A stretch of 63,493 nucleotides of DNA, filler included, from Licmophora abbreviata (lineage: Eukaryota), in assembly GCA_900291995.1 (NCBI GenBank). It is 7 parts of 7 records of this genome, joined end to end, with 100 filler letters (N's around TTAATTAATTAA, not from the genome) between each part and the next. Parts side by side here need not be neighbours in the genome. Positions count along the whole stretch, not along the records: positions 42,724 to 57,535 come from OLMU01000476.1; 6 more parts are not named here. The stretch is one strand, 5' to 3'. The notes beneath the pieces are model-generated. The model saw only the letters and a program-made list of their open reading frames with translations. It was not told the origin of the DNA and did not search any database. Both the position numbers and the translations under genes were made by a program. Positions 27,523-56,305 of the stretch are shown here, piece after piece (position 1 is the stretch's first letter; every line of letters begins with the position of its first letter).

Positions 27523-27602
27523 TGACACCGGTGGGATTCGAACCCACGCCAATTAAGAACACGGCCTAAACGTGCCACCTTAGACCACTCGGTCACAGTG
27601 TC
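27523..27602 (-). tRNA. tRNA-Leu(TAG)
   Basis: Reverse complement GACACTGTGACCGAGTGGTCTAAGGTGGCACGTTTAGGCCGTGTTCTTAATTGGCGTGGGTTCGAATCCCACCGGTGTCA; anticodon loop TT-TAG-GC, long variable arm, T-run downstream. Confidence 0.93.
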
Positions 27603-54056: not shown

Positions 54057-55797
54057 ATGAGCGACGACGAAAGTGTGCCCGGGGAAGAAGGAGAGGAGGT
54101 CACAGACCTCTCCAACAGGTAAGAAGAGGTATTTCGATGTGGGCATGACCTCGGGTCTGGTGGATTTGATGGTCGTTTCATTTTCTCAACTGTTTTTCTC
54201 AATCGACTCGATGCGAAGTGACGTCTGTACCAAGTACCAAGAAGCGGCCAAAATTGTGAACTTGGCCCTGTCTGGATTGGTCACACAATGCATTCCAGGT
54301 GCCAAGATTGTTGACTTGTGTCAGGTAAGCGACAATGGGCGTCTGTGATAACTACAGAATGGGATCGCGACACATGCCTCTCACGCCGAGTTCTTCTCAT
54401 TCCAAACACCAGTTTGGTCAAACCGTGATAGAGACGCAAGTCTCCAAGTTGTATACCAAGAAGGTCGACGGAGCTGCTGTTGAAAGGGGGGTCGCTTTTC
54501 CTGTTTGCATCAGTGTCAATGATATTGTTTGCAATCACTCACCTCTTTCCAGCGAAGAACTGGTACGTGGCTCCTGAGTTTTCTGTGCGAGATTCGGAGG
54601 GTGCCCTGTAGTGATCGTTTTCAAGTGGACCACGATCGCGCGTCATGTATCGTGACTCGCTATGACCGGTACGCAGATCCATCAGTCATACTGCAGGAAG
54701 ACGAATGGGAAGGTGCTGGTTGATCGCCTATTGACTAGGTTGATCCTGGTACCTGCTGGTCCTTGTGCTTTGCATGTCTTTTTTCCTGTATCGGTGTGGC
54801 AACACCCGAACAACAAGACCCTCTGTTTTCACGGTCGCATGAAAGCTGTGCGCACGAACTGAACCCTACATATCTCTTGCCTTGCGATCCTTGCACTCAC
54901 CTTAACGCCCCTTAATAATATTGCTCATTTCGATAGGCTCCGCTGGAACTTGGTGACATTGTGAAGATGGATTTGGGATGCCATATCGACGGATACATTG
55001 CCGTTGCGGCACACACGATTGTCGTTGGCGCCGAAGCCGATGTTGACGACGAACTCGGTAACGTTGCCGTGGCAGCGTACAATGCCATGCTGGTCGCGGC
55101 GGATGCCATCAAAGCCGGTGCATCCAACAACTCTGTTACAAAGGCAGTGGAGCGTGTTGCCAGGGCTTATGACGTCAAGCCCATCTCGACGGTTCGCATG
55201 CATCAAATGAAACGATATGTCATGGATGGAGTGAAGGAAGTTGCACTCAGAGAGCCTAGTCCAGATGAGTTGGAAGGGGGCGACGAGAAAGTTCCCGAAT
55301 GTTCGTTTGAACAGGCCGAAGTGTACGCCGTGGACGTGGCCTTGAGTACAGGTGACGGCAAAGCCAGGCAGAGCGAGTTGCGATGCACTGTGTACAAGAG
55401 AAATGTCGAGGCCAACTACCGTCTCAAGATGAAGGCGTCGCGCTACGTCCTGTCGGAGGTTGATAAGAAGTTCCCTACTTTCCCATTCACTCTCCGTCAC
55501 TTCGACGACGAGAAGCAAGCCAAGATGGGAATCACCGAATGCACTACCCATGGTTTGGTGACGCAATACCCGTCGCTTGCCGAGAAATCTGGCAAGGTTG
55601 CTCATTTCAAGTGCACTGTCTTGATCCTTCCTTCCGGAACGTCCCGTGTCACTGGACTAGATTTGCCAGAATACTTCAAGACTGCCAAGGAGGCAGACGA
55701 GGAGACGAAAGCCGTATTGACAGGCATTGCGGAACGAGAGGCGAAGAAGGCTGCCAAGAAGGCCGCCAAAAAGAAGAAAAAGAAGGCTAGTAGTTAA
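54057..55797 (+). CDS. PA2G4: Proliferation-associated 2G4/EBP1 (inactive MetAP2 fold, ribosome-associated); introns 54119..54218, 54325..54412, 54563..54936
   Basis: DLSNSDVCTKYQEAAKIVN, RGVAFPVCISVN, KMDLGCHIDGYIA, YRLKMKASR, FPTFPFTLR, VAHFKCTVLILPSG, Lys-rich tail. Confidence 0.93.
54596..54873 (+). ncRNA. Candidate intronic structured RNA (H/ACA-like)
   Basis: Several helices, ANANNA boxes at 54699 and 54810, ACA at 54868 and a GCAA-capped hairpin inside an unusually long intron; not matched to a known family. Confidence 0.45.
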
Positions 55798-56305
55798 AGA
55801 GGGGTAACGCTCTCTCTACTAGAGGGATTAGTTGTAAGGTCGGAAAGAGAAAGTCTGTGCGCGTCTCGCCTATTGAGGCCTATCAAAGACTACTGTTAGC
55901 TTCGCTATCGTTTCTGCCCTGAGGGAAGCCCAAGCTCCACAAGATTCCAGGCATGATTCTCGGCGCATCGTTAACCATTCTATACCCCGTGAGAGACAGT
56001 GCACTTCAGGTCGAGAACGGTCCGCAATTGTAAAGACTCCTGAAGGCATCCCAGGTACGATAAAACAAGAGTACTTGGTAACTTATGTTACACGAACGCA
56101 ACGCAGCAATCAAAATTCGGCGGCACAGTACAGCGCAGCGCGCGTTATCATGACAAAACAGACACGCACACAGCAATCCCTGATATCATCATCATCGCGT
56201 CGCACAGGACGACGTTGTGTCTCTGATGCATGCTGCCGCCGACCATTTCTCAATAGTATTGGCGTTGACTTGGTCCTGCACAAACAATCCTGATCACAAT
56301 AAAAA

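Follow-up and report, generated by a model that had tools for sequence, protein, structure and literature searches.

A conserved structured RNA element with H/ACA-like features in the third intron of diatom EBP1 genes

Results

The EBP1 locus and its third intron

We analysed a 63 kb stretch of DNA from Licmophora abbreviata (hereafter the window, whose positions serve as coordinates throughout) and focused on a gene of four exons on the plus strand (54057 to 55797) that encodes a homologue of PA2G4/EBP1. Its third intron carries a conserved, structured RNA element of about 270 nucleotides (nt), which belongs to a previously uncatalogued family that resides in the same EBP1 intron in many diatoms. 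Splicing of the exons (54057-54118, 54219-54324, 54413-54562 and 54937-55797, plus strand) yielded an open frame for a protein of 392 amino acids. The preliminary description of this locus, made from the sequence alone, had named the host gene as PA2G4/EBP1, and the exon 4 protein indeed matched human and other PA2G4 chains (E value 1.8e-60), while the last exon also matched the Pfam family Peptidase_M24 (PF00557). In a search among 5.8 billion proteins, the closest relatives with an organism name were all from diatoms (72-79% identity), namely Trieres, Ditylum, Odontella, Chaetoceros, Rhizosolenia and Coscinodiscus, in agreement with a diatom source. The introns of the gene measure 100, 88 and 374 nt. 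Intron 3 (54563 to 54936, plus strand; GT..AG) lies between residues 106 and 107, as judged by reconstruction of the spliced frame and by comparison of the junction among loci; the spliced 392-residue frame returned the same limits as those first proposed. Read through, the intron contains in-frame stops and is thus non-coding. It had also been claimed that nearly all other introns of the window span about 65-115 nt. A census with a heuristic that bridges open reading frames gave 173 noisy candidates, and those between long open frames measured 66-100 nt, which fits the claim without proving it.

An element conserved among orthologous introns

For comparison, 80 loci were collected from metagenome contigs with the exon 4 protein, and the spliced 392-residue protein was aligned to all of them to classify the junction at residues 106/107. 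This junction was colinear (cDNA-like) in 55 loci and interrupted in 20; four further loci started inside the interruption and one (L023) started after it. We then used an nhmmer profile of 13 orthologous introns, from which the window was excluded. It matched the window at 54604-54874 on the plus strand with an E value of 4.8e-19, covering model positions 4 to 292 of 293, compared to an E value of 1.3 for the second-best match in the 63 kb. The element (54604 to 54873, plus strand), as delimited by this hit and by the loss of conservation at both edges, comprises a 5′ domain, an H-like box, a hairpin that we call hairpin II, a 3′ domain and an ACA tail, and measures 270-390 nt across the family. 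Among the 24 loci with DNA at the junction, 19 carried it according to the profile (13 distinct full copies, five duplicates and one partial copy, L009). The carriers include the loci closest to Chaetoceros. None of the 55 spliced contigs was matched by the profile, and no remnant was detected in L023 at E values up to 10. The introns that bear the element are 364 to approximately 800 nt long and contain blocks near-identical to the window intron. The window holds a single copy, located at the site orthologous to that of other taxa, which rules out a repeat or a transposon. Three loci (L020 1-434, L054 1-510 and L009 1-285) are short contigs that start within the intron and continue into exon 4, the L020 contig beginning 28 nt upstream of P1, the first helix of the element; if derived from RNA, these three contigs would be unspliced or partly processed transcripts.

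Edges of conservation and distance to the splice sites

In the alignment of 14 sequences, conservation starts at the 5′ strand of P1 and ends a few bases past the ACA triplet, and the flanks beyond P1 and the ACA tail cannot be aligned among orthologues. Across orthologues, 41 to about 285 nt separate the 5′ splice site from P1, and 55 to 150 nt lie between the ACA and the 3′ splice site, hence the element is not tied to the splice signals. This pattern of edges is that of an independent RNA nested in the intron and not of a signal linked to a splice site. The ACA box (54868 to 54870, plus strand), located 66 nt upstream of the 3′ splice site and preceded by a helix strand and a 2-nt spacer, had been pointed out at the outset; it is shared by all 14 sequences and defines the 3′ edge of conservation.

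The same distances bear on the alternative that the structure acts in cis within the EBP1 pre-mRNA and tunes its own splicing or stability, for example through feedback by the RNA-binding EBP1 protein. The locus would then resemble the ribosomal-protein genes that regulate their own introns. Compatible with this alternative are the constant location of the element in one intron of one gene and the two folds, each excluding the other, that exist for the 5′ domain of the window copy (see below). Its best support comes from five loci (L012, L013, L064, L065 and L049) that keep the intron without any trace of the element even at an E value of 10, a pattern that is less surprising for an optional regulator than for an essential RNA that acts in trans. 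However, the element sits at varying distances from both splice sites, the intervening sequence is unalignable, and the donor, the acceptor and the final 55 nt of the intron all lie outside it. Moreover, it is not obvious what the ACA, invariant and placed exactly where conservation ends on the 3′ side, would do in a cis-acting switch, and no conserved site complementary to the loop of the T1 hairpin (described below) was found in the host mRNA across 12 loci. We consider a cis-acting structure improbable; the splicing switch proposed in the preliminary description gains little, given that the distance to both splice sites varies.

The element-free introns at this junction are approximately 105-290 nt long. 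The absence of the element in L012/L013, L064, L065 and L049 indicates that it was lost or moved more than once. In L012 the element-free intron lies at 2477-2743 (L013 is its duplicate), and the L012 protein, 77% identical, is among the closest to that of the window. A scan of L012, L064, L065 and L049 with the Rfam models at E values up to 1 returned no match.

The 5′ domain and its closing helix

Base pairs were counted on MAFFT alignments that are blind to structure, one of the 5′ domain (A2) and one of the 3′ half (A3). In the 5′ domain, 89.0% of the cells were paired compared to 78.7% in shuffled alignments, with double changes in 13 of 20 pairs; none of 500 shuffles reached any of four measures and slid controls were paired at 35-44%, although part of this structure was derived by RNAalifold from the same alignment. 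The closing helix P1 is formed by CCUGUAG (54605 to 54611, plus strand) and CUGCAGG (54691 to 54697, plus strand), the latter closing the 5′ domain also in the minimum-energy fold of the window. It corresponds to the closing helix of the preliminary description and was upheld by a separate anchored count, in which 83 of 91 cells were paired in 13 sequences (L006, which is without the CCUG/CAGG anchors, was excluded), positions 5-7 covaried and none of 2000 strand permutations did equally well.

Within P1, RNAalifold on A2 predicted long-range helices whose 5′ strands are P2a (GAUC, 54613-16), P2b (GU, 54625-26) and P2c (ACC, 54629-31), with an invariant CAAG between them (54613 to 54631, plus strand). 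Their 3′ strands, P2c (GGU, 54668-70), P2b (GC, 54673-74) and P2a (GAUC, 54676-79), lie in the block CUAUGAC..ACGCAGAUC (54660 to 54679, plus strand), which consists of near-invariant columns in alignments A1 and A2. The P2 counts gave 98.2% and 95.6% of cells paired, with double changes in six of nine pairs, and P2a reads GGUC/GACC across the family and GAUC/GAUC in the window. The P3 hairpin (54638 to 54660, plus strand; A2 pairs 61-66/192-197, double changes in 4 of 6) is the shortest version in the family, orthologues having a longer arm, and is the same as the GTCATG/CGTGAC hairpin noted initially. The comparative model of the 5′ domain accordingly consists of P1, a long arm of P2a, P2b, P2c and P3 and a small variable hairpin that, where present (in most sequences), precedes the 3′ strand of P1; the model coincides with the own minimum-energy fold of several orthologues.

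The window has two mutually exclusive folds of 54603-54699, one with local hairpins and one with the covarying long-range helices. The letters GAUC occur three times in this interval (54613, 54634 and 54676), which provides an alternative for each partner. Every hairpin motif listed in the preliminary description was recovered at its position (CCTGTAG 54605, CTGCAGG 54691, TGATCGT 54612/ACGATCG 54632, GTCATG 54642/CGTGAC 54651 and TATGAC 54661/GTCATA 54685). Conservation of the folds was another matter: the regions of the first and third of these 5′ hairpins pair otherwise in orthologues, where P2a-c covary instead, and the TATGAC/GTCATA hairpin is specific to the window.

Two nt past P1 lies the H-box-like AGACGA (54699 to 54704, plus strand). 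Proposed from the window as an ANANNA box, it falls within an aligned A-rich box that is present in 14 of 14 sequences, all with A at box positions 1 and 3. The P3 arm of most orthologues (e.g., L021 2480-2748) carries AGAGGAGG, a complement of CCUCU, which is an invariant part of T1. This long arm is missing from the window, where ACCCUCU at 54818 has a possible partner in GGAGGGU at 54596, immediately beyond the edge of the element. These complements could conceivably form a long-range or kissing contact, for which covariation is uninformative, the pyrimidine side being invariant.

Hairpin II and the 3′ domain

In the 3′ half, 89.1% of the cells were paired compared to 79.1% in shuffles (slid controls, 35-52%) and 8 of 14 pairs showed double changes. 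Orthologue folds and A3 define hairpin II (54710 to 54771, plus strand) by a lower stem (AAGGUGC 54710-16/GUGCUUU 54765-71), a core in which CUGGUUGAUC (54716-25) stands opposite UGGUCC (54757-62), and a variable tip. The lower stems differ in sequence and are nevertheless paired in the own minimum-energy folds of most orthologues, whereas the core reads GGUUGA(A/U)C opposite GGUCC across the family, with 78.8% of core pairs paired. In its own minimum-energy fold, the window puts hairpin II in another register, and the register of the G-U-rich hairpin at 54711-54754 that had been drawn from the window was not conserved across orthologues. Both CUGGUUGAUC (54716-54725) and GGUUGAUCCUG (54738-54748, in the window-specific tip) lie in hairpin II and have the letters of the extreme 5′ end of eukaryotic 18S rRNA in the sense orientation, the classic 5′ primer site. 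Orthologues keep only the shorter core GGUUGA(A/U)C, and the likeness could be due to chance. A 17-letter motif of the 18S primer type was found at eight loci in viral contigs, none of which contained rRNA according to Rfam.

Further downstream, the motif AUCGGUG with a local GGUG..CACC hairpin (54790 to 54806, plus strand) matches by position the CU(C/A)GG(C/U) of orthologues, in which the GG opens the lower stem Pz. This stem (A3 columns 137-140 with 268-271) was paired in 91.1% of cells with double changes in two of four pairs, ends 2 nt before the ACA and covaries among GGCA/UGCC, GGUU/GACC, GGUGC/GCACC and others. The window departs from this and offers only GGU 54793-95 with ACC 54863-65 or the local hairpin. 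The 3′ hairpin also has a middle stem, whose strands are complementary in 10 of 14 sequences in spite of being unalignable.

The T1 hairpin (54817 to 54836, plus strand) combines a GACC/GGUC stem of four base pairs (bp) with a near-invariant 12-nt loop, CUCUGUUUUCAC. An anchored count in 14 sequences found 51 of 56 stem cells paired, including G-C to A-U exchanges, and none of 2000 permutations equalled it; the figure in A3 was 91.1%. Purine-rich conserved blocks flank T1 on both sides, the one adjoining its 3′ side being GCAUGAA (54837 to 54843, plus strand; alignments A1 and A3), which reads GAUGAA in most orthologues. A degenerate 22-letter T1 pattern, used to look for copies outside EBP1 in genome contigs, gave 11 bacterial hits that match the motif only, and by our own arithmetic about nine are expected by chance. 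As for the hairpins, the remaining motifs listed at the outset were all found in place (AGACGA 54699, ACAACA 54810, ACA 54868, GGAGGGT 54596, ACCCTCT 54818 and ACCCT 54863). Some of the features built on the window alone did not extend to orthologues, namely the GCAA-loop hairpin (54791-54809), the second ANANNA (ACAACA 54810) and the alternative pairings with GGAGGGT 54596, a motif outside the element, or with 54775-54790.

The surroundings of T1 are the starting point for another explanation, in which the intron gives rise to a stable RNA of a different and possibly new ribonucleoprotein (RNP) class; T1 with its G-A-rich flanks would then be, for instance, a kink-turn for a protein of the Snu13/L7Ae type, and the ACA just part of a terminal motif. 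The GCAUGAA block together with the conserved ..GA 5′ of T1 could possibly form such a kink-turn. This explanation agrees with the location of the strongest conservation, which is found in T1, GAUGAA and the hairpin II core and not in H/ACA pockets, with the several departures from H/ACA RNAs discussed below, and with a CUGA before the tail in L032 and L054 and a UGAUGA-like block in L032. On the other hand, the D-box-like GA is absent in six of 14 sequences (L017, L069, L074, L006, L050 and L060) while the ACA is invariant, only about one in two sequences has the partner G of the kink-turn, and there was no match to an Rfam C/D family. We therefore regard a different RNP class as unlikely.

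Comparison with known RNA families

The preliminary description had failed to match the intron to known RNAs, and systematic scans gave the same result. With the Rfam 15 covariance models, the intron had no match at the gathering score, and none was found in 54400-55100 at E values up to 10, including RNase P/MRP, SRP, U3, 7SK and all H/ACA families; on 12 orthologous loci at E values up to 1, nothing relevant was detected. The sole Rfam matches in the window at the gathering score were two tRNA genes on the minus strand (2677-2749 and 27523-27602). ARAGORN found no tRNA-like cloverleaf in 54400-55100. The 3′ hairpin of U17/snR30 has two invariant motifs, m1 and m2; their best matches carried 2-4 and 1-2 mismatches, respectively, at non-homologous places in the 14 sequences, which argues against a U17/snR30 homologue. 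Model diatoms are reported to have the telomere repeat TTAGGG (PMC8329260). Telomerase RNA was rejected since no 8-mer or 9-mer of the complement of the repeat occurred in the 14 sequences, and a 7-mer did so in only two, at non-homologous sites. Box C/D RNAs have a C box (RUGAUGA) and a D box (CUGA) joined by a terminal stem; some sequences show a C-like block 3′ of T1, but with the D-like GA missing as described above, this class was rejected as well.

Folding energy, strand and chance

We also considered that the intron might merely be long and its helices the product of chance or neutral change. The folding energy of the whole intron would allow this, with a z-score of -0.95 and 16 of 100 shuffles as good, so that the folding test suggested in the preliminary description was unremarkable; z-scores were -1.24 for 54596-54870 and -1.30 for the element (54604-54873). 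A lower value was obtained for 54603-54699, whose minimum-energy fold consists of three hairpins closed by CCUGUAG/CUGCAGG (-34.5 kcal/mol, z-score -3.03, 1 of 200 shuffles as good), a value to be read as that of a 97-nt stretch picked post hoc. The evidence that beats chance is the conservation and covariation in orthologous introns and not the energy. The match of the window-free profile, the covarying helices and the single copy at an orthologous, non-repeat site contradict the chance explanation, which we consider excluded for all practical purposes; conservation and covariation show that the structured RNA in the oversized intron is real. The counted helices include dozens of G-U cells, which would be A-C mismatches on the other strand and place the RNA on the plus strand, and an RNA from the opposite strand was rejected on the basis of these pairs together with the z-score of the minus strand of the intron (+1.01).

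Sequencing runs

Two runs with small shares, X1 and X2, the library kind of which was guessed, were compared with the gene. X2 contained one contig of 222 nt (54646-54866, one difference) that lies wholly within the element and ends two bases short of the ACA. No other X2 contig fell on the 1744-nt gene, except for low-complexity matches at the lysine-rich tail. By our own arithmetic, chance would place a single 222-nt piece of the 1744-nt stretch entirely within the 270-nt element in about 3 of 100 cases. The contig is a weak hint that the element accumulates separately, as read from contigs of a guessed library type that carry no information on RNA ends. The lysine-rich C-terminal tail of EBP1 (55738-55790) draws many unrelated low-complexity contigs, which makes depth uninformative for the gene.

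Discussion

We propose that EBP1 intron 3 encodes a trans-acting, intron-processed, H/ACA-like orphan RNA of about 270 nt (54604 to approximately 54873, plus strand), with three domains and no canonical pocket, and we hold this to be the probable explanation, with considerable room for others. The marks that suggest an H/ACA affiliation are the ACA in 14 of 14 sequences, the covarying helix that ends 2 nt before it and the A-rich box right after P1. By definition, H/ACA RNAs carry the ACA in a single-stranded tail, three nt from the mature 3′ end, and have a hinge of the form ANANNA (PMC2664660); small nucleolar RNAs (snoRNAs) are also mentioned in general and as a reference for quantitative PCR (PMC4247016). 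Under our proposal, the pre-mRNA would be spliced and the excised intron then trimmed from both ends, until trimming halts at a protein-protected particle with the ACA tail at its 3′ edge and P1 at its 5′ edge. Intron-encoded H/ACA snoRNAs are made by the same splice-then-trim route. The particle would presumably contain the H/ACA proteins Cbf5/dyskerin, Nop10, Nhp2 and Gar1. Its conserved loops may contact another RNA or a protein, probably in ribosome or small nuclear RNP biogenesis, instead of guiding the formation of a single pseudouridine. Conservation is highest in the T1 loop, the purine-rich blocks that flank it, the hairpin II core, CAAG, and UAUGAC..ACGCAGAYC of the 5′ arm. By analogy, we think that the element resembles H/ACA RNAs in its biogenesis and the orphan members of that class in its function.

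Several observations weigh against this proposal. The plan of hairpin, hinge, hairpin and tail is not followed, in that there are three domains, with the conserved hairpin II placed between the H-like box and the ACA-proximal hairpin. Neither the window nor its orthologues contain a two-sided pseudouridylation pocket 14-15 nt from the H or ACA box: the loop above P1 has a 5′ side of 1-2 nt and that above Pz a 3′ side of 0-1 nt, and neither is conserved. A conserved loop, CGAUC/UAUGAC, does exist, at about 40 nt from the box. The box itself, 1-2 nt after P1, conforms strictly to ANANNA in 9 of 14 sequences, while the other five have ANANNG. The lower stem before the ACA has just 4-5 bp, and no other member of the family is as reduced as the window copy, with P3 truncated, no middle stem and only 3 bp that can be drawn before the ACA; in this copy the local 5′ hairpins (-34.5 kcal/mol) are favoured by 23 kcal/mol over the covarying long-range P2 helices (-11.6 kcal/mol). 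The folding z-scores of the whole intron and of the element are unexceptional. The five introns that are free of the element imply that the RNA is either dispensable there or encoded elsewhere in those genomes. Finally, no run recorded as RNA covers 54057-55800, and the X2 contig comes from a library of guessed type and cannot show RNA ends. The label of an atypical multi-domain H/ACA RNA, offered in the preliminary description, therefore holds in part: it is still the best one available given the invariant ACA and the A-rich box after P1, but the pocket is lacking, the box departs from ANANNA in some sequences and membership in the class is something that we infer.

A bolder version of the same idea, which we regard as rather doubtful, is that of a diatom-wide RNP RNA that has H/ACA-style ends for stability only. 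The T1 loop, the hairpin II core and the blocks of the 5′ arm would then serve as a chaperone or docking site in pre-rRNA processing, making the RNA a counterpart of snR30/U17. If this were true, the fixed residence in EBP1 would couple the supply of the RNA to a ribosome-associated factor, and the letters of the 18S 5′ end in hairpin II of the window would hint at mimicry, or at competition for a factor bound to this end.

Non-coding RNAs of diatoms are poorly charted. Full-text searches of the literature returned no account of diatom H/ACA RNAs or of this element, for which Rfam likewise lacks a model. The EBP1 proteins of the lineages concerned are only about 70-80% identical, and an RNA of 270-390 nt kept among them with covarying helices very likely has a function. 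The long EBP1 intron thus exists to hold a gene, as compared to approximately 105-290 nt for introns that are free of the element, and the alignment of the element is a ready seed of a covariance model for the annotation of diatom genomes.

Among known systems, autoregulatory introns of ribosomal-protein genes (yeast RPL30 type) share with the element a conserved fold in an intron of a translation-related gene. Structures of the RPL30 type include or abut splice signals, whereas the element lies at a variable distance from the donor (41 to about 285 nt) and from the acceptor (55 to 150 nt). The H/ACA domain of vertebrate telomerase RNA is likewise an H/ACA-like scaffold that bears extra conserved functional loops, but the element has no TTAGGG template (8 or more letters) in the 14 sequences and no conserved domain 5′ of P1. 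The likeness to intronic H/ACA snoRNAs and small Cajal body RNAs is closer and includes the location in an intron of a ribosome-linked gene on the host strand, a hairpin followed by an A-rich hinge box, a lower stem that ends 2 nt before an invariant ACA, and conservation that stops after the tail. Typical H/ACA RNAs are about 130-150 nt in size; the element differs in its length of 270-390 nt, its three hairpin domains, the missing 14-15-nt pocket, the departures from ANANNA in 5 of 14 sequences and the lack of a match to an Rfam H/ACA family. Processing of 18S rRNA requires the orphan H/ACA snoRNA snR30/U17. The literature searched contained no report of U17 in diatoms, and the element differs from snR30/U17 in that it is without the m1/m2 motifs and that the internal loop above the lower stem of its 3′ hairpin is unconserved. 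What both would have in common is a large, non-modifying RNA of the H/ACA type in which the conserved elements are recognition motifs and not pseudouridylation guides, and by this analogy we think that a functional model of the snR30/U17 kind fits the element best.

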